DNA from: an uncultured Bacteroidales bacterium
GTDB lineage: Bacteria; Bacteroidota; Bacteroidia; Bacteroidales; WCHB1-69
Direction: 5' to 3'
DNA length: 64,000 bases
NCBI GenBank assembly: GCA_900315245.1
Contig: OMYJ01000007.1
Location: forward strand, 93,256 to 157,255
The stretch's first letter is position 1, and the number at the start of each line of letters is the position of its first letter. Shown one piece after another: positions 44,452-53,018 of this stretch. The position numbers and the translations under genes were made by a program. Below the pieces are notes generated by a model. That model saw only the letters and a program-made list of their open reading frames with translations, was not told where the DNA came from and made no database searches.

Positions 44452-45225
44452 CTAATTGATCAGCCACGCCCCCCCGAGCCCAATTCCGTTGAAACTCCGG
44501 GGATCCTGGCAGTTGAACATCCCGTAGAGGTCGAGTTGCACACGCGGGTGTACGAGGCAGTTGAAGCCGAAGTCTAAGTCGCATTCCGCTTCGGTGTTTT
44601 TCTTTCCGTAACGGGTGAAGTAGTTGTAACTCTCCACAAAGGCTCCGAAGCGGTCGGACATATTGAAGCCGAGGCAGAGGGCAAGGAAGGTGGACGGGAT
44701 GTGCGAGACGCCTGACCATTCCGCTCCAACATTGTAGCCGATGTTGAACCACTCGGTGACGTCGTTTTGGAAGAGCAGGTAGAGCGACGGGGCCACATGG
44801 GGTTGCACACCTCCGTCGGGCACGCGGGTGAGTGGGATGGCGAGGTTGGCCATCAGGGAGATTTTGGGCACCCACTTGTAGCCTTCGAAGATTTTGACTT
44901 TGGTGCCGATGACGAGCGGCTGCACGTCGTAGGACCAGTAACGGAGTCCATGATGGTCGAAGCGGCAGTACGAGCCATCGTACTCAAGTCGCAGTTCAGC
45001 GAAGCGGGTTACGCCGAAGCGCAGCATTGTGGTGGGCAGCAGGAATCCTGGGGAACCGTTCCAGGTGCTTTCAAAGCCGGTCTCCCACACCACTTTCAGG
45101 AAGGGGGTGACGTCGGGTCCCGTCGCCATTCCGGGCCGGTCGGCGGAGAGGGTGGGGGAGTCGGTTTGGGCGTTGGCGGTAACGAAGCACGCCAGGAGGA
45201 GGAAAAGGGGGAATAGTTTCTTCAT
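44452..45225 (-). CDS. Outer-membrane beta-barrel protein (MetA-pathway/phenol-degradation-like transporter family, tentative)
   Basis: Signal peptide. N-terminal LSADRPGMATGPDV motif. Beta-strand periodicity. Confidence 0.45.
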   Translation of the reverse strand: MKKLFPLFLLLACFVTANAQTDSPTLSADRPGMATGPDVTPFLKVVWETGFESTWNGSPGFLLPTTMLRFGVTRFAELRLEYDGSYCRFDHHGLRYWSYDVQPLVIGTKVKIFEGYKWVPKISLMANLAIPLTRVPDGGVQPHVAPSLYLLFQNDVTEWFNIGYNVGAEWSGVSHIPSTFLALCLGFNMSDRFGAFVESYNYFTRYGKKNTEAECDLDFGFNCLVHPRVQLDLYGMFNCQDPRSFNGIGLGGAWLIN

Positions 45226-45274
45226 ATTCTATAGGAGGTGTGGTTGTTTTGTTAAAATGTTTGTTTTCAGTTTT

Positions 45275-47035
45275 TTACAGTTTTACCACCGCATTGTAAA
45301 ACTCGATACAGGATTCCTTGATCTGGTCGGTGTTGGTGCGGTAGTCACCCTCCAGTTGCGCTTCCCATTTGTGGAGGTTTTGATTTTTCTTCCCCAAATG
45401 ATAGTTGAAATGGTATTTGGCTAAGTCGCCACCAGCCATAACGTTTATCTTTTCCACCATATCCGGGTTTTCTGTTTGAATCTGCAACGTGAAGGAATTG
45501 TCTTTGGGCGAGCAGCGGAATTCCGCCTTTAAGTTGTTGCGTTCGTAAATCCTGCCGTAGGTCTTGCCTTTTACCGCCCTTATGCTCGGAATGGAGGGTT
45601 TCAAGTCGGCCACGAAATGCTCAAAGAAACTCATTATTTCAAGGGCGGCCTGGCTCTTGCCCCTCTTCGGAGCCGTGTCGAACGCCTTGAGGTTGGTGAC
45701 CGCCGACAGGGCGATGACCGATTCCACGATGTCGCCCAATTTGTCGTCATTGCCGATGATTTCGGCGATTTTGTTGAGCAGTCTCGACACTTGGAAGGCG
45801 CGTATGCTCAGATAGGTCTCCTTTTGACACATCCGGAACAACACTTTCTCCCACTCCTCGTCGAACTCTGTGGCAGCGTTCAGGCTCTCCTTCTCATCTT
45901 CGGTCAGATGGCGCAGTTTCAGCTTCGCGGCAGTGCCATCGTTCCAATTCTTGAAATCGGGTTCTTCCGTCAGCTGGTTATACACGTACGGATAGGCGAT
46001 CTGCATACAGACCAACGCGAAATTGATCAGTTTGGCCTGTGTGGCATTGGTGTCATTCACCTCGTCATCGTCATCCCCTTCGTTGATGATGGAGATGAGC
46101 GACAGGGTGTTGCTCAGGCGTTTCAACGAGCGCGGGTTGCTTCCGACCGACAGGCGGGCAATCTCACTGAGGTTTTCGGCCAGAGACTCGTTTTCCAATT
46201 CCTTTGGTGAAAAAAATTCGATTTTCTGGAGGGCATCCACCAGGAAGGTGTCAACGTTGTAGGAGGCCACGGGCATCGAGAAGGGCAGTTGGATGATCTT
46301 GTCGAAGAATGCGCGGAACTCGCGCTCGTTCTTGTCGGTCAGCTCGCCGAATTTGGATCTCAGGCCCTTGATGACCACGTCGTAGTCTATGGCGAGGATG
46401 AACACGCACTTGTCGAGGTCGAAGATGTTCTTCATCAGTTCCAGAATCTCCACGGCGACAGGCGGGTCGATGCGGTCGAGGTCGTCAATGTAGAAAGTGA
46501 AGCCGATTTTCGACGGGTTCATCTTGAGGGCCTCCTCGATGAGTTTGGCGATTTCATTTTTCAGCTGGAGGATATCGGACTCAGCGCTTTCGCCGCCGAA
46601 CAGTTCGTCCACCACATCTCCGTCCACGCCCACGGTGCTGGCCGCCACCTTGGCGCCCACCGAGGCCATTTTCTTGAAGATGCCGCCAATTTTCTTCTTG
46701 CTCTCGTTCCATTTGTGGTCGGGATTGATTTCGCCGATTTGGTTTATACACCCTTCGAGGATGCTCATAATGGCCTGCGGTGGCGTTTTCATCAGCGAAT
46801 ACTGCCACGTGTTGACCCATACGGGGAAATAGGGTGCTCCCTCTTTGTCACACAGCTCATAGCGGAGCTGGTTCATCAGCGAGGTCTTTCCGCTGCCCCA
46901 CTCGCCTTGCAGGGCGATGGTGATGGGCGTGTTGGTGAGCCGGATGAACTTGACTAGCGCGTTCTGGTATTTTTGGATTCCGAACAAATCTGCCTCCGAA
47001 TATTTGCGAGGCACATCAATGATGCTGGATTTCAT
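45275..47035 (-). CDS. KAP-family P-loop NTPase
   Basis: Walker A LQGEWGSGKTSLMNQL. YIDDLDR Walker B/KAP signature. 586 aa. Confidence 0.85.
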   Translation of the reverse strand: MKSSIIDVPRKYSEADLFGIQKYQNALVKFIRLTNTPITIALQGEWGSGKTSLMNQLRYELCDKEGAPYFPVWVNTWQYSLMKTPPQAIMSILEGCINQIGEINPDHKWNESKKKIGGIFKKMASVGAKVAASTVGVDGDVVDELFGGESAESDILQLKNEIAKLIEEALKMNPSKIGFTFYIDDLDRIDPPVAVEILELMKNIFDLDKCVFILAIDYDVVIKGLRSKFGELTDKNEREFRAFFDKIIQLPFSMPVASYNVDTFLVDALQKIEFFSPKELENESLAENLSEIARLSVGSNPRSLKRLSNTLSLISIINEGDDDDEVNDTNATQAKLINFALVCMQIAYPYVYNQLTEEPDFKNWNDGTAAKLKLRHLTEDEKESLNAATEFDEEWEKVLFRMCQKETYLSIRAFQVSRLLNKIAEIIGNDDKLGDIVESVIALSAVTNLKAFDTAPKRGKSQAALEIMSFFEHFVADLKPSIPSIRAVKGKTYGRIYERNNLKAEFRCSPKDNSFTLQIQTENPDMVEKINVMAGGDLAKYHFNYHLGKKNQNLHKWEAQLEGDYRTNTDQIKESCIEFYNAVVKL

Positions 47036-47112
47036 AAGTGTTCTAAGGTGTTTAAATTATTGTTTCCCAAAGTCCGTTTTGTTAATGAGTTGACCGATTT
47101 TGCGACGCCCAG

Positions 47113-47355
47113 TTACTTCTCCCGCTTCAATGCCTCCTTGGCGTTTTCGATGTTGCGCTTGATGGACTCGATGTTGCGGTCGTGGGAGGCCGCATGGTCG
47201 ATCTTGGATTTGCGGTAGGAAGCCTTTGAGGAGGGCGAGGACGCGCTCTTGATCAGGCTCGCATAGCGTTCGTTGTCTCTTTTCTTGGCCTCGCGCTCGC
47301 GTTCCAGCTGCGCCCGCAGGTCGATGATTTTCTTTTTGTAGTACTCTTTGCTCAT
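47113..47355 (-). CDS. 80-aa charged coiled-coil protein
   Basis: Lys/Glu/Arg-rich heptad-like sequence on the same strand as its neighbours. Confidence 0.45.
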   Translation of the reverse strand: MSKEYYKKKIIDLRAQLEREREAKKRDNERYASLIKSASSPSSKASYRKSKIDHAASHDRNIESIKRNIENAKEALKREK

Positions 47356-47377
47356 AATTCTTTATTACTGTTGTTTC

Positions 47378-47417
47378 GCCTACTCTTTTCCGGATTTTTG
47401 GCGGGCTCCGTGGTAGG
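47378..47417 (+). repeat. Conserved intercistronic motif, copy 1
   Basis: GCCTACTCTTTTCCGGATTTTTGGCGGGCTCCGTGGTAGG. Compare 49961..50000 and 50900..50935. Confidence 0.8.
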
Positions 47418-47422
47418 AATTG

Positions 47423-49043
47423 TTATTTCTCGTAATTCTTTCGTGCCATTTCCAAGATGGTGAGCGCGGCCTTCGTCTGCTCAGTGGTCGGGGCTTTGTC
47501 CACCGGGAACTTGAAGGTGTGGTAGCTGACATTGCGTGAGGTGACCTTGTGCTCGAAGTTCGGAAGCGCTTTGCCAATCTTTTCAATCGCCACCGAATCC
47601 TCCATACCCCAGGCATTGACAACGAGAGCCTTGGGCTGTGGGGCAAAGGTGACGAAGTTCTTGGCCTTGCCATTCTGCGAAAAGCCGATGTAGCTTTTGC
47701 TGTCGTAGTTCACTTGGTAGGTGCCGTCTTGTACGTATGGCATCCCCGCAACGAGCCTGTCCAAAATCTGCAGCGCAGGTTTCACATCCTTCACCATGTT
47801 CTCCCAAACATCGCGGCCGGGAGCGGTCGAGCTGGCAGACTTTGCGGTTTGTTTCACTTCTTTGGGCGTCTCTTTTTCTTTCTTGGGTTCTTCTATTTTC
47901 TCGACAACTTTCTTCTCTGCCTTTGGTGTTTCTTTCTCTTTTTTTTGGTGCGTTTTTCTGCTGAGCCTCGTAAATGCGAGCATCCAGCAGCAGCTCGAAC
48001 TCATCGGTGTCGCCGCCGGCTTCTTTTACCTTTTTGATGAGGATGGCACGCTCTTTGTCGGTGACCACACCATCCACTAGGGCGGCTTGGATGAGTTTCT
48101 CCAGGTCAATGGAGGCTCCTTTGGCCGGGACTGTTTCCTTTTTCTTTTCCTTGGTTACTTTTTCCGCTGCCGGTTTCGGAGCTTTCTTTTTGCCCAGGTA
48201 GTTGATTTTTACACGATTGGTGAATGCGGTAGGGTGAATGACCACCTCTCCCTCCTCGTTCAAGATGTTAGCGATCTCAAGACCACATAACTGATCTCCA
48301 TTATCACCAAAGGCATCGTTGGCAACTGCAGTGACAGAATCGGGTATTGTGATTTCTTTTAATGAAGAACAGCCCTTGAAAACAGAGGAATTAATAAAAA
48401 TGACAGAATCGGGTATTGTGATTTCTTTTAATGAAGAACAGTCGGAGAAAGCATCGGGACCAATGGAAGTGACGGAATCGGGTATTGTGATTTCTTTTAA
48501 TGAAGAACAACGCTCGAAAGCAGAATCACCAATTTCAGTGACAGAATCGGGTATTGTGATTTCTTTTAATGAAGAACAGCCCAAGAAAGTACCGTAACGA
48601 ATGGAAGTGACAGAATCGGGTATTGTGATTTCTTTTAATGAAGAACAGCCCAAGAAAGCACAGCAATCAATGAGAGTGACAGAATCGGGAATTGTGATGG
48701 TTTCCAACGAGGAAGGAAAACGACAAGAAATTTTTTTGATTGTTTTAGGCAACACCACTTCTCTAGTTTGTGAATTAAAAATCTGCTCATACACTTTCGA
48801 GCTTCCTTTTTTTCTTTTATCAAAATATATCTCGGCTTCTTTGTATCTATCCAGAGCGGTGACTGTATATTCCACTCCGTTATATCTGACTCTTATAGGG
48901 ATGACGCACCTCTCAGAAGAATTTGTAGCATGTATTAGCGCCACCTCTTTTTGGGATTCATCTATGATTTTATAATAGAAACCGTAGAATTCAAAGGATG
49001 TTTTTTCGTCAGTACTGGTAATTTTTGTGTAATAATCTGCCAT
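47423..49043 (-). pseudogene. BspA-type LRR + TerB-like helical module + unknown C-domain protein, split by a frameshift in an A8 tract
   Basis: Track ORFs 47583..49043 and 47423..48004 overlap. Removing one A from the A8 run (47939..47946) joins ...YEAQQKNAPKK to EKETPKAEKK.... Six LRRs of consensus SLKEITIPDSVT. No signal peptide. Confidence 0.7.
48333..48720 (-). repeat. Six 69-bp tandem units encoding the LRRs of the frameshifted gene
   Basis: Units start at 48333, 48402, 48471, 48540, 48609 and 48678. A ~41-nt block (GACAGAATCGGGTATTGTGATTTCTTTTAATGAAGAACA) is invariant and ~28 nt are variable. Confidence 0.9.
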
Positions 49044-49091
49044 ATTTTTAAATTTATTTGTTTAGTCGTTATTGTTGTTGTTTCAAAAATG

Positions 49092-49931
49092 TCATATTTT
49101 TTTGCTTGCCGGATAAATCTGCGTATCTTTCTTGTCGTTACATCTTAAAATATCCTTATGGTTATGTCGCAAATAGTTTCTGACCATCCATATCAAGTTG
49201 TCCTTACTGCCGTTGTCCAATGCACGTTGTCCAGAAAGCATAGAGGAGAAGTACATCTGGGCCTTGAAACCCTTTGTGGAAAAGGTGTAGCCTCCGAGTT
49301 GGTCGTTTTGGGTCAAGCTATACTTGGCATTCTTGTAGAAATTGTCGTATTTGGGTTGGTCGAGTTTCAAGAGATCCCTACATAACATTTTGCAAGCAAG
49401 AGCATTGGCAACAATAATGACTTTTGGCTGAGTCAGTATCAAATACTTCAAAAAAAGTTCAAACATCTCCTTGTAATAGTCTGGGTTTTCCAGAAAATCC
49501 TCTCTTACGACAGACTGGTTGCTCTGCACGATACCGAAAAGATCCAATTCTGAAAAACTATTCGTACAACCTAAACATTTTTCCGCAAACTCCCCCATCT
49601 CTCTATAGTACGGGCTGTCCCCACCATAGGCAAACACATCTTCTTTGTTGCGGGAATAGCTTTTCTTGTCAGTTCCGGAAGGATTCATGCCGACAAACAG
49701 GAGAGGAGCTCCCTCGCAAAGCCGGTCGCTTATTTCAATGCAGGGAATCTCATCCGGTTTGTCACCGCTATTTTTCTTCTCAGAATACTTGCACTTGTCG
49801 CGTTCAAGAACCCATTCTTCCGTCTTGTTGTCAAGTCTTATCTTGCGGTTGCAGAATCTTTCTCTAAAACTTGGAACATTCCATAGCGCGACGTATTCTT
49901 CTTTCAACTGCGTTGTCAATGGGCTTATCAT
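49092..49931 (-). CDS. Uracil-DNA-glycosylase-superfamily-like protein (Mug/TDG-like motifs; tentative)
   Basis: PLLFVGMNPSGTD resembles the Mug motif LFVGINPG. FSSMLSGQRAL resembles the PNPSGLS second motif. From memory only. Confidence 0.35.
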   Translation of the reverse strand: MISPLTTQLKEEYVALWNVPSFRERFCNRKIRLDNKTEEWVLERDKCKYSEKKNSGDKPDEIPCIEISDRLCEGAPLLFVGMNPSGTDKKSYSRNKEDVFAYGGDSPYYREMGEFAEKCLGCTNSFSELDLFGIVQSNQSVVREDFLENPDYYKEMFELFLKYLILTQPKVIIVANALACKMLCRDLLKLDQPKYDNFYKNAKYSLTQNDQLGGYTFSTKGFKAQMYFSSMLSGQRALDNGSKDNLIWMVRNYLRHNHKDILRCNDKKDTQIYPASKKI

Positions 49932-49960
49932 TGTTTTTTTGACAAAGGATAAATAGTAAT

Positions 49961-50000
49961 GCCTACTCTTTTTCGGATTTTCGGCGGACTCCGTGATAGC
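49961..50000 (+). repeat. Conserved intercistronic motif, copy 2
   Basis: GCCTACTCTTTTTCGGATTTTCGGCGGACTCCGTGATAGC. Confidence 0.8.
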
Positions 50001-50138
50001 GTTTTATTCAGCTCAAGCTCCATTCCGTTGGAGTCTCTGCTTGATTAATCCGTTCGGTGGAAAGGCGGTTCGTGAAAGTCTAGTTCAAAAAAAGATGACT
50101 ATCTGGCAAAACTGTCAGATAGTCATCAATAATTATGG

Positions 50139-50876
50139 TTAGTTATTTCCAGCGTCTTTCAACATGGAGCTGTCGTTGGAAAGTTTGCTGTCATCCGAGC
50201 GGGCCACCTGGACATTGATGCCGAAAATGGATTTCATCTTATATTCAAAGTCCATCACCTTCATTTCGTTGGTGGCCTCGAAACTACCCACTTGGGTGGC
50301 ATCACCGTCAATGCGAAGACCGGCGAGGTGTGCCTTCGGGTTCGCCTTTTTGCCGCTGGGTTCATAAACACGCAGGCAGGCATTGAAAGCATCTTTGAAT
50401 TCCTGCTGCAAGGTGTTCACCGTCATACGGCCGTCCACTTGGAAGGTGAAGCCGGCAAGATATTCCAACTCGTAGGAGCCGCGTTCAGTGCCTCCTTTGG
50501 TCTTTTCGAAGGAGGCAACCTCTATGCCGAGTCCCTTTGCGTGCTCCACTATGGTTGGGAAGTTGCTTTCTCCCCACATTATCTTGTAGAAGATAACTTC
50601 GGTGCCGTCTTCCAAGGTGAGATACCAGTGAATTTTTCTCCATTGGGCGACGTCTGCTTTCTCGCGATCGGTGCCGTTTGCCTCGACTCCATTCTCCAGT
50701 TCATTCAAATCAACGAGAAGTTTGTCAGTGCTTTTAGTCGAGGCGAACTTATCGCGCGGGAAAGCCTTGTTCAGGTCTTCCAATGTGGCGTAAGGATAAA
50801 TCTTCAAATAGGCATTAATTATGCCAAGGGCAGTCCACCCTTTTGCTTTTCCATAAACTAAAACTTTAGGTTCCAT
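50139..50876 (-). CDS. Hypothetical protein carrying module X at its C-terminus
   Basis: The C-terminal ~95 aa (VNTLQQEFKDAFNACLRVY...FEYKMKSIFGINVQVARSDD) are paralogous to 52040..52342 and 52388..52750. Confidence 0.55.
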   Translation of the reverse strand: MEPKVLVYGKAKGWTALGIINAYLKIYPYATLEDLNKAFPRDKFASTKSTDKLLVDLNELENGVEANGTDREKADVAQWRKIHWYLTLEDGTEVIFYKIMWGESNFPTIVEHAKGLGIEVASFEKTKGGTERGSYELEYLAGFTFQVDGRMTVNTLQQEFKDAFNACLRVYEPSGKKANPKAHLAGLRIDGDATQVGSFEATNEMKVMDFEYKMKSIFGINVQVARSDDSKLSNDSSMLKDAGNN

Positions 50877-50899
50877 AATAATATTGTTTTTGTTGTTTT

Positions 50900-50935
50900 G
50901 CCTACTCTTTTCCGGATTTTCGGCTTACTCTGGTT
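50900..50935 (+). repeat. Conserved intercistronic motif, copy 3
   Basis: GCCTACTCTTTTCCGGATTTTCGGCTTACTCTGGTT. Confidence 0.8.
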
Positions 50936-50975
50936 ACACTTATCTTCGGTGTTTTTATTCTACAGTTGTAATAGA

Positions 50976-51407
50976 TTATTCGAATAATTTTGTGATGTTG
51001 GATATCTTTTTTGCGAAGTCAGAGACATCATCCATCATTTTCATTGCGTCGTCCAATTCAGCCAAATCTTTCCGTTTCCGTTCTTCCTCCGTCAGGAAAG
51101 TCTTGTCGAAATCGTCATCGAATTCGAATTCGAAATAGTCGTCGTAGTTGGGTTTCCGGAAGAGGGATTTTTTAGCGCCTCGTTTTTTGGAGGTCACCAT
51201 AGCGTCCAACAACAGTCCGAACTCCTCGGCATCGAACCCTATTGCCACGGCTTTGCGTATCAGGATGCCCGCATCAAGTTCGGAGAGTTCGTCCTTCATC
51301 AGGGCGGAGCGTACGAGTGGGCGCAACGATTCAACCTGCGGCAACGGTGTTTTATCCCCGTTGCCGCCAGCTGAATGGTTGAAAATGTCAATATCGTTGG
51401 TGTTCAT
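50976..51407 (-). CDS. Hypothetical acidic protein with a TerB-like helical module
   Basis: ATG 51407 (MNTNDIDIF). LSELDAGILIRKAVAIGFDAEEFGLLLDAMV parallels VTDKERAILIKKVKEAGGDTDEFELLLDARI in the LRR gene. Confidence 0.5.
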   Translation of the reverse strand: MNTNDIDIFNHSAGGNGDKTPLPQVESLRPLVRSALMKDELSELDAGILIRKAVAIGFDAEEFGLLLDAMVTSKKRGAKKSLFRKPNYDDYFEFEFDDDFDKTFLTEEERKRKDLAELDDAMKMMDDVSDFAKKISNITKLFE

Positions 51408-51459
51408 TATAGTATGTGTCGTAAGGATTGGTATGAAAGATGTTGGGAATAGCGAGGCT

Positions 51460-51768
51460 TTACATTTCCTTTTCTTCAACAAGTTCCGTTAGAATACCTT
51501 TGGCATGTTCTGTGTCAATGCCAAGAATGCCGGCAAGGACAAAGAAATTGTTGATCTCTTCTTCTGCAAGGTAGGAATCGCATCCCATCAGTTGGAGGCA
51601 GAGGGCTAATATCCCGTCTTTTTCTTCGGGATTTACCTTTTTGGCGGCGTCGGTGAGCTTTTTAGTCAGTTCATCAGCAGATAGATTTGTGACATCTGCT
51701 ATACAAGCCTGAACATCGTCAACTAAGGTGTCTAGTTCGAGATTGGCTGCGATTTCTTGTGTCGCCAT
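51460..51768 (-). CDS. Small acidic helical protein (TerB-like, tentative)
   Basis: 102 aa. DGILALCLQLMGCDSYLAEEEINNFFVLAGILGID. Its start overlaps the stop of the upstream peptide ORF. Confidence 0.45.
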   Translation of the reverse strand: MATQEIAANLELDTLVDDVQACIADVTNLSADELTKKLTDAAKKVNPEEKDGILALCLQLMGCDSYLAEEEINNFFVLAGILGIDTEHAKGILTELVEEKEM

Positions 51769-51938
51769 TATTTACGTTTTTTCCTGCCTGTGAAAAGGTT
51801 GAGGATTCCCCTCCCGATTTTGCGTTCCAGGCCGCCTTTGGTGGTTGGTATGCGTGTCTTGCGGGCGATTTTGGTCTTGAGACCAGAGATGCCGATGGCC
51901 CGTTTTAAGGAAAATGAAAGACCACGTACACGAGACAT
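51768..51938 (-). CDS. 56-aa Arg/Lys-rich peptide
   Basis: MSRVRGLSFSLKRAIGISGLKTKIARKTRIPTTKGGLERKIGRGILNLFTGRKKRK. This is the distal part of track ORF 51768..52175. Its stop overlaps the next start (TAATG). Confidence 0.3.
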   Translation of the reverse strand: MSRVRGLSFSLKRAIGISGLKTKIARKTRIPTTKGGLERKIGRGILNLFTGRKKRK

Positions 51939-52039
51939 AATGTGATATTTTAGTGGTGGATTGGTGCTTTTTTGAATTAAACTCATAAAAGTTGTACGCT
52001 GTTGTGCCAGCGTACAACTTTGCGATTTAAAACGAAATA

Positions 52040-52342
52040 CTATCTGCCGGCGGCAGCGATAGTGATGTCGTTGTCGGCCAGTGCGCTGTCGTCCTTGGTG
52101 GCGACTTGCACGGTGACGCCGAACAGCTCTTTCATTTTGGTCTCGAAGTTGCCGACCTTGAGGTTTCCGGCGCATTTGAGTTCACCGCCCTTGGCGTCGC
52201 CCACGCGGATAGACGCGAGCGTGGCGTCATCGTCAGCGAATTGTTTGCCCTTGTAAACTCTCAGCGTTGCACCGAAAGCTTCTTTGAATTGTTTCTTCAG
52301 ACTTTTGACCGTCAAGCGGCCGCTAATGTTAAATTCTGCCAT
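52040..52342 (-). CDS. Hypothetical 100-aa protein consisting of module X
   Basis: LTVKSLKKQFKEAFGATLRVYKG...KVGNFETKMKELFGVTVQVATKDD. Confidence 0.55.
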   Translation of the reverse strand: MAEFNISGRLTVKSLKKQFKEAFGATLRVYKGKQFADDDATLASIRVGDAKGGELKCAGNLKVGNFETKMKELFGVTVQVATKDDSALADNDITIAAAGR

Positions 52343-52387
52343 AATGAATGTTTTTTTAGTGAATAATTGGGTTGAAAAAGGTTTCTG

Positions 52388-52750
52388 TTAATATTCGCCA
52401 CGAGCAGCCTGCCCGATGGTGATGTTGTTCGGCACACACTCCTTGCCGGCCTTGTCCTTGATTTGGACGGTTACGCCAAAAGCATCGTTAAACATTTTCT
52501 CTGCATCTCCCACCTTGGTGCTGCCCTTGAGTTTGATCTCTGCGTTAGCTTTTTTCACATTTTTGGAAGTGTGCTTGTCCAATTCCGCAAGCGTCATGTC
52601 GCCGTCCGCGATCATCGACCCTTTGTAGAAGACAAGTGTGCAGTCGAAATTTTTCTTGAATTCCGCTGAAATGGTTTTCAATTTCTTGTTCGGAGCGACC
52701 GTGAACTCCGCGTTGTTGAATCGGTCTTTGATGTTGTTGAGAATACCCAT
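52388..52750 (-). CDS. Hypothetical protein consisting of module X
   Basis: ATG 52750 (track start 52780 is a TTG). LKTISAEFKKNFDCTLVFYKG...KVGDAEKMFNDAFGVTVQIKDK. Confidence 0.55.
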   Translation of the reverse strand: MGILNNIKDRFNNAEFTVAPNKKLKTISAEFKKNFDCTLVFYKGSMIADGDMTLAELDKHTSKNVKKANAEIKLKGSTKVGDAEKMFNDAFGVTVQIKDKAGKECVPNNITIGQAARGEY

Positions 52751-53018
52751 AACAATTAAGTTTTGATTGTTTTTGATCAATGAATCAATACTGCAAGGGC
52801 TTCACTAACAGGCACGAAAAAAGGCGTGGCCTGTCTTTGTCGTCAAAGAGGTTCTAGCAAAACCCAAGCAGAAAACAAAAAACAATCCACGCCTGTTGCA
52901 GGCATGATCACTGTAATTGCTTTTCTGCTGTTGATTAAAATTTGCTAGATTTCTTTGACAAACAAAAAGCGATTGCACGATAACTAAAGAACGTCAGTTT
53001 TTCGAGGAAAACATGCTG

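Follow-up and report, generated by a model that had tools for sequence, protein, structure and literature searches.

The window, i.e., the whole stretch of 64,000 nucleotides from an uncultured Bacteroidales bacterium that was analyzed here, carries on its minus strand a run of exactly eight A residues at 47939..47946 (T8 on the plus strand), one A longer than in the in-frame CC-A7 allele. The run lies in the minus-strand context ...CAG CAG AAA AAC GCA CCA AAA AAA AGA GAA AGA... (flank: GAGAAAGAAACACCAAAGGCAGA), and two minus-strand open reading frames overlap at it in different frames: one of 486 aa (47583..49043) and one, as reported by gene callers, of 193 aa (47423..48004). When the run is read as A7, the 368 codons upstream and the 171 codons downstream join into a single 539-aa protein, with the junction reading ...NAPKK/EKETPKAEKK... 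(in a longer stretch, ...NAPKKEKETPKAEKK...), and the joined-frame protein has full-length homologues at E values of about 1e-170. It is this union of both frames in one product, with homologues along its whole length, that stands above chance; the A8 run alone is not unusual. An earlier note on this DNA, made from its letters, had claimed a frameshift at A8 with two overlapping ORFs, and this is borne out exactly by the minus-strand letters and the ORF list; its single protein of about 540 aa at A7 proves to be one of 539 aa whose junction is spanned by intact relatives, and the gene that it took to be a split LRR/TerB-like fusion is indeed one, with LRR, TerB-like and C-terminal parts parted by one extra A in the homopolymer.

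The original-frame part of the gene (47939..49043, minus strand; 368 codons) encodes the N-terminal region, BspA-type LRRs, the TerB-like segment and the start of a linker, whereas the native downstream frame (47423..47938, minus strand; 171 codons and the stop) encodes the remainder of the linker and the C-terminal domain. In the 486-aa ORF, the run is followed by an out-of-frame, Arg-rich tail of 118 codons (47583..47938, minus strand, by translation), which is probably not native coding sequence: its frame has a codon-usage score of -0.36, versus +0.58 for the other, native frame. The first 22 codons of the 193-aa ORF (MSSSCCW...) are, in turn, the TerB-like region read out of frame, and its start is fortuitous, not being conserved in L052, a second out-of-frame allele taken up below. 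Separate translation of the downstream half was considered and is unsupported, the ATG of the 193-aa ORF being an out-of-frame accident that misses the domain in L052.

The upstream part is a BspA-type LRR protein (PF13306 LRR_5 in Pfam, E 2.8e-53, 179.6 bits versus a gathering cut-off of 27.7), and the intact protein of one relative, L005, reaches 275 bits against the same family. The N-terminus of the split gene is identical to those of the intact relatives P0003 to P0007; no N-terminal hydrophobic signal or signal peptide is seen in the LRR protein sequence, and neither NCBIfam nor PADLOC holds a family for it. The 69-bp repeats that had been claimed within the gene are real, forming a tandem array at 48330..48698 (minus strand; period 69, 5.3 copies, 83% matches) that encodes 23-aa LRR units, with five core copies in the window and four or two in related alleles from non-Logan assemblies. 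In L047, a Logan contig (ERR2027910) of the window's own clone, the five core copies at window 48422..48606 appear as one, making Logan unreliable for copy number. LRR copy-number differences in Logan contigs were therefore dropped, and copy-number variation is supported by the non-Logan assemblies only (5, 4 and 2).

The TerB-like helical segment (residues about 298–352; 47988..48152, minus strand) is recognized by sub-threshold profile matches only, namely to PF04391 DUF533 (E 0.0018, 18.3 bits, cut-off 29.6) and to the NCBIfam DjlA region (E 4e-4, 20 bits, cut-off 162), and precomputed PF04391 matches are present on some relatives. Looser copies of the TerB-like motif VTDKERAILIKKVKEAGGDTDEFELLLDA occur in a nearby 168-aa gene (50976..51482, minus strand) and elsewhere in the genome (G000:C13:121355-121540), and the motif is also found in many Paludibacteraceae LRR proteins with different C-termini. 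After this segment comes a Lys/Glu/Pro-rich linker encoded by A-rich DNA, and then a 131-aa alpha/beta domain (47426..47818, minus strand), which AlphaFold2 and fold matches describe as DUF5655-like, with a MotA-CTD/YbjN-like fold. The AlphaFold2 model of this domain has a pLDDT of 91.1 and a pTM of 0.85; its best fold match in BFVD is a phage DUF5655 protein (TM 0.63, E 2.6e-5), while PDB matches to MotA-CTD, YbjN and T3SS chaperones are weaker (TM 0.4–0.5), and the match to Pfam DUF5655 (PF18899) lies below threshold (13.2 bits, cut-off 24, E 0.093). The domain is rare, with 10 clusters among 1.84 billion representatives, nearly all of them C-terminal on LRR proteins. Among 151 family and 55 genus representative genomes, neither it nor the tract flank was found outside the window's own genome, the TerB-like segment alone being found there, so that the comparison of strains relied on metagenome contigs.

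The split gene lies in a same-strand locus and adjoins a gene for a KAP-family P-loop NTPase (45275..47035, minus strand; PF07693, E 2.4e-36), whose product matches the PADLOC models PDC-S20 (1.4e-30), PifA (3.2e-30) and QatA (5.8e-19). These matches to defense models suggest that the whole locus is defense-like in context. The region (window 44452..52900) is strain-variable when set against L002, L038, L039, L042, L043 and L044/L045: bounded by a Phenol_MetA_deg-like gene (44452..45225) and by upstream small genes, it differs strongly in content between strains. The window, L038, L042 and L005 have the KAP NTPase, L044/L045 lack it, and in L002 it is replaced by genes of 655, 271 and 210 aa. 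Depending on the strain, the next gene upstream of the LRR gene encodes 279, 282, 271 or 189 aa, and at least three unrelated types of LRR N-termini are fused to the same TerB-like and C-terminal module. In the window, the 279-aa upstream gene (49092..49931, minus strand) matches no Pfam, NCBIfam or PADLOC family at E 0.01 bar a marginal one (PADLOC Aga_REase, E 0.009), and it is conserved at 96–98% beside several different LRR alleles.

Homopolymers are a classic site of indel errors, and A8 might, accordingly, be a sequencing or assembly artefact of a genome with A7. The 193-aa ORF requires CC-A8 and hence serves as a marker of the out-of-frame allele in the public protein collection, which includes both it (P0123) and the 486-aa ORF (P0023). 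The exact A8-dependent ORF is carried by 10 contigs, which stem from no fewer than seven assemblies or runs (ENA ERZ920286, ERZ1029110, ERZ1029115 and ERZ28614290; an NCBI record; and the Logan runs ERR2027910, ERR3275091 and ERR12543467), and all seven of these contigs that were fetched show AACGCACCAAAAAAAAGAG and match the window at 99.7–100% identity. The collection of 15 billion proteins has no exact copy of the 539-aa protein with its frame restored, and no in-frame version of the window clone was found in the 10 contigs or in that look-up. The assemblies may share reads of the same cattle-rumen projects, as their sample names would indicate; against this, they comprise a single-sample scaffold, k87 co-assemblies and the Logan contigs of three runs, and L047 carries 10 substitutions relative to the window in 3.5 kb next to the repeats, which suggests that it was built from other reads. 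At an 8-base run, moreover, errors in an Illumina consensus are rare. Since several assemblies, made with different programs and from more than one run, all have A8 as their consensus, an assembly error is very unlikely, and an artefact of any kind is barely credible; the comparison of assembled contigs thus speaks against A7 in the true genome, an outcome that the earlier note had named as one that would undo its claim.

Relatives were sought with residues 250–539 of the read-through protein, and about 18 intact ones, up to 97% identical, run in one frame across the site, with 94–97% identity over these residues and many covering 99–100% of the region. P0003 to P0007 (95–97% identity) have the junction NAPKKEKETPK or NAQKKEKETPK, and the window's downstream frame is 92–97% identical to the C-termini of intact relatives. 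Scans of metagenome contigs and genome contigs gave just one close locus, L005, and a scan of viral contigs for the locus gave no match. Aligned as DNA, 13 loci plus L051 and L052 show the tract in several states. The in-frame alleles have CC-A7 (L002, L038, L039, L051), C-A8 by a C>A substitution that turns Pro to Gln (L005, L040/L041, L043) or, in the more distant L042 and L044/L045, CCT-A6 preceded by AAGAAAGAG. The out-of-frame CC-A8 occurs in the window clone alone, and L052 (Logan SRR16020817) is out of frame with C-A7 (GCAC-A7-GAG), i.e., in a -1 state: its upstream frame ends ...NAQKKRKKHQRQRRKLSRK at a stop, and the domain goes on in another frame. The in-frame allele L043 also has an A10 run (L043:4050..4085; ACACAAAAAAAAAACGC) directly upstream of its C-A8; some linker alleles thus hold still longer slippage-prone runs.

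L052 is an allele in its own right, sharing 97.3% identity with the window over 911 nt, and is placed as its sister with support of 100/99 in a tree of the last 846 nt. Because the tracts of the two differ by two bases, the alignment implies that the run changed at least twice, in separate events, in these sister lineages. Alleles that are at least 96% identical include both in-frame and out-of-frame lengths. A further allele, L053 (Logan SRR19497819, 470..520), has a different lesion in the linker, which, by comparison with P0013 and P0017, looks like a deletion of about 11 nt; the frame of its downstream domain is intact. These other frameshifted alleles were found by a search for C-terminal fragments, which biases the sample toward breaks in or near the linker; both are Logan contigs, for which a k of 31 should still report a 7–8 base run correctly.

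The ORF is disrupted relative to intact homologues, as it would be in a decaying pseudogene, the other outcome by which the earlier note would have had its claim fail. Further lesions are not seen: the 171 downstream codons contain no stop or further indel, and constraint on them does not appear relaxed, with a pN/pS of about 0.4. Between the window and L052 there are seven synonymous and 10 non-synonymous differences downstream, and the resulting pN/pS of 0.38 falls inside the range of in-frame pairs (0.18–0.47); synonymous changes exceed the neutral expectation with a binomial P of 0.048, on small numbers. Taken together, these two values argue, with the caution that small numbers demand, that the window and L052 diverged mostly while the domain was translated, in which case the frameshifts would be recent or the frame would often have been restored, and that the gene is not a long-dead pseudogene. 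Among ten alleles, the codons unique to the window (six synonymous and three non-synonymous) all lie downstream, and their clustering suggests an imported segment.

The run is ordinary in this genome of 3.05 Mb, in which A/T8 runs number 397 and longer A/T runs 124, with 63 sense-strand A8 runs inside long open frames, and in which AAA makes up 52% of Lys codons. The tract is thus not unusually long for the genome, nor is it kept as a tract among homologues, distant alleles having CCT-A6. The gene itself has two other A7 runs (48807..48813 and 48731..48737), at which no frame-breaking change is seen in any full-length allele. A genome-wide scan for homopolymer-split genes gave 41 candidates and was used solely for the codon scores of the three frames; as true frameshifts the candidates were set aside, most of them appearing to be neighboring genes parted by an A-rich spacer. 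Outside the window, one A/T run reaches 26 bases and falls within an open frame of 300 codons or more, and there are several G/C runs of 9–10 bases; as candidates for slippage switches, these are a priori stronger than A8.

A parallel might be struck with the classic contingency loci of Neisseria, Haemophilus, Campylobacter and Helicobacter, in which, as here, a mononucleotide run inside the gene changes the reading frame when its length changes, and that length differs between strains. There, the tracts tend to have more bases (at least 8 for G/C, at least 9–10 for A/T) and to be maintained as tracts; they are placed close to the 5' end or within the promoter, and their switching rates range from 1e-5 to 1e-2. 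Conservation of the tract, when tested here, was, unlike in those loci, not found. Neisseria examples of homopolymer slipped-strand mispairing have been listed (PMC5084427). The closest parallel is the tract of Listeria inlA, whose 5' poly(A) occurs as A7 in frame, A6 with a frameshift and an interrupted A2GA4 (Orsi, Bowen & Wiedmann 2010, PMC2831843). Its A6/A7 changes have rates of 5.5e-7 and about 4e-8 per cell, so that the tract changes at about 1000 times the point-mutation rate and yet far below classic phase variation, and the frameshift arose at least twice independently (PMC2831843). Like the gene studied here, inlA encodes an LRR protein, has a short poly-A run of Lys codons, shows in-frame, out-of-frame and interrupted alleles among close strains, and has at least two frameshift origins. 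The two differ in that the inlA run lies at codon 8 and its frameshift abolishes a whole surface protein, whereas the present run, from a rumen Bacteroidales that is uncultured, is located two-thirds along the gene of a cytoplasmic protein, and its frameshift would take away the C-terminal domain alone. Similarly, the 7C tract of Mycobacterium tuberculosis glpK is a short (7–8 base) homopolymer within an ORF rather than a canonical long SSR, and it gives a transient, heritable and reversible loss of function (bioRxiv 10.1101/717272; PMC10334774); in that case, reversion and a selective benefit have been shown experimentally.

The phase switch that the earlier note had raised as possible gains some support. 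The tract length does toggle the frame (A8 gives the split ORFs and A7 the 539-aa ORF), and both the ON and the OFF lengths occur among close strains, in alleles at least 96% identical. At this one run, the sister lineages are out of frame in different ways (+1 and -1), as would be expected of a truly phase-variable tract; the downstream frame is intact and constrained in both; and the other two A7 runs of the gene are never broken in full-length alleles. The adjoining KAP NTPase, with its matches to defense ATPase models, would also suit a switch; homopolymer switching of a defense gene is known in pglX of the Streptomyces Pgl system, and toggling here might perhaps modulate a defense-like locus. 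Other observations speak against the tract as a switch. The clone's 10 contigs are all A8, and the look-up among 15 billion proteins has no in-frame variant of it; the run is short and common, with hundreds of equal or longer runs in the genome; it lies two-thirds into the gene and not near the 5' end; and in more distant alleles it is replaced by CCT-A6 and AAGAAAGAG. A7/A8 is, besides, at the low end for poly-A switches, a comparable tract changing at 1e-7 to 1e-8 (PMC2831843). On balance, a true contingency switch that toggles the C-terminal DUF5655-like domain at an ecologically relevant rate seems unlikely. Low-rate reversible switching would be plausible but is unproven, and it is doubtful that a low-rate switch reversibly detaches the DUF5655/MotA-like domain from a cytoplasmic LRR and TerB-like sensor in a hypervariable, defense-like island that includes the KAP NTPase.

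The frameshift might also be partly bypassed during expression, either by RNA-polymerase slippage that gives A7 transcripts or by a ribosomal +1 shift at AAA-AAA-AGA, making the allele leaky instead of null, with a minor amount of full-length protein still produced, and such leakage would be compatible with a slippage hot spot as well as with a switch. The motif CCA AAA AAA AGA does allow +1 re-pairing of tRNA-Lys, which is evidence of capacity only, and a slip on AAA AAA A/GA would give exactly the APKKEKE reading; AGA is a minor Arg codon here (9.7%), and constraint seems to act on the downstream frame. [quoted passage not shown] By the same slippage rescue (Baranov et al. 2005, PMC1088944; also endosymbiont poly-A tracts), an out-of-frame A8 could yield a corrected mRNA, but the documented bacterial cases are mostly of runs of nine or more A, or of conserved sites, and the A8 here is unconserved. 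About 18 relatives read through the site in a single frame, all other alleles but two are in frame, and L052 would need the opposite correction, so that the site is no evolved recoding signal and any bypass can only be incidental leakiness, which we regard as quite improbable. A -1 ribosomal shift on A_AAA_AAA was rejected, the -1 frame stopping after about 18 codons and the needed frame being +1.

We thus favor, with a probability of roughly 0.6, a recent frameshift at a recurrent slippage hot spot over an evolved switch. This reading starts from what is directly observed, i.e., the insertion, its reality across assemblies, the intact relatives, the recurrence at the run and the lack of decay downstream. 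The change from CC-A7 to CC-A8 is a real and heritable insertion of one base, most simply explained by replication slippage, in the A-rich Lys/Glu/Pro linker of what is probably an accessory, cytoplasmic LRR, TerB-like and DUF5655-like protein of a rumen Paludibacteraceae-type bacterium. The main product in the clone would then be truncated, keeping the LRR and TerB-like parts, gaining a nonsense tail of 118 residues and presumably losing the C-terminal domain. The lesion appears young, and the run acts as a recurrent indel hot spot, to judge from the independent change of opposite sign in the sister allele. Its mutability is probably a by-product of AAA Lys codons and not an evolved switch. 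A slow, inlA-type reversible ON/OFF change, or a rescue of a few percent by RNA-polymerase slippage, may ride on top of such a hot spot.

For annotation, both ORFs belong to one frameshifted gene of the LRR, TerB-like and DUF5655-like type, rather than to two hypothetical proteins, and the annotated 486-aa product bears a nonsense tail of 118 residues. The locus, defense-like and variable between the strains of a rumen commensal, offers a clean natural example of what looks like repeated slippage at a short poly-A run. Were the low-rate switch true, slippage in the homopolymer would let strains turn one arm of an as yet undescribed conflict system on and off. Phase variation in Bacteroidales has been described mainly for DNA inversions, and a homopolymer switch would be unusual there. 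Should the run lengths be mixed within a population, the gene would be a rare instance, for Bacteroidales, of phase variation through a homopolymer; otherwise, it would reflect the ordinary turnover of accessory genes.
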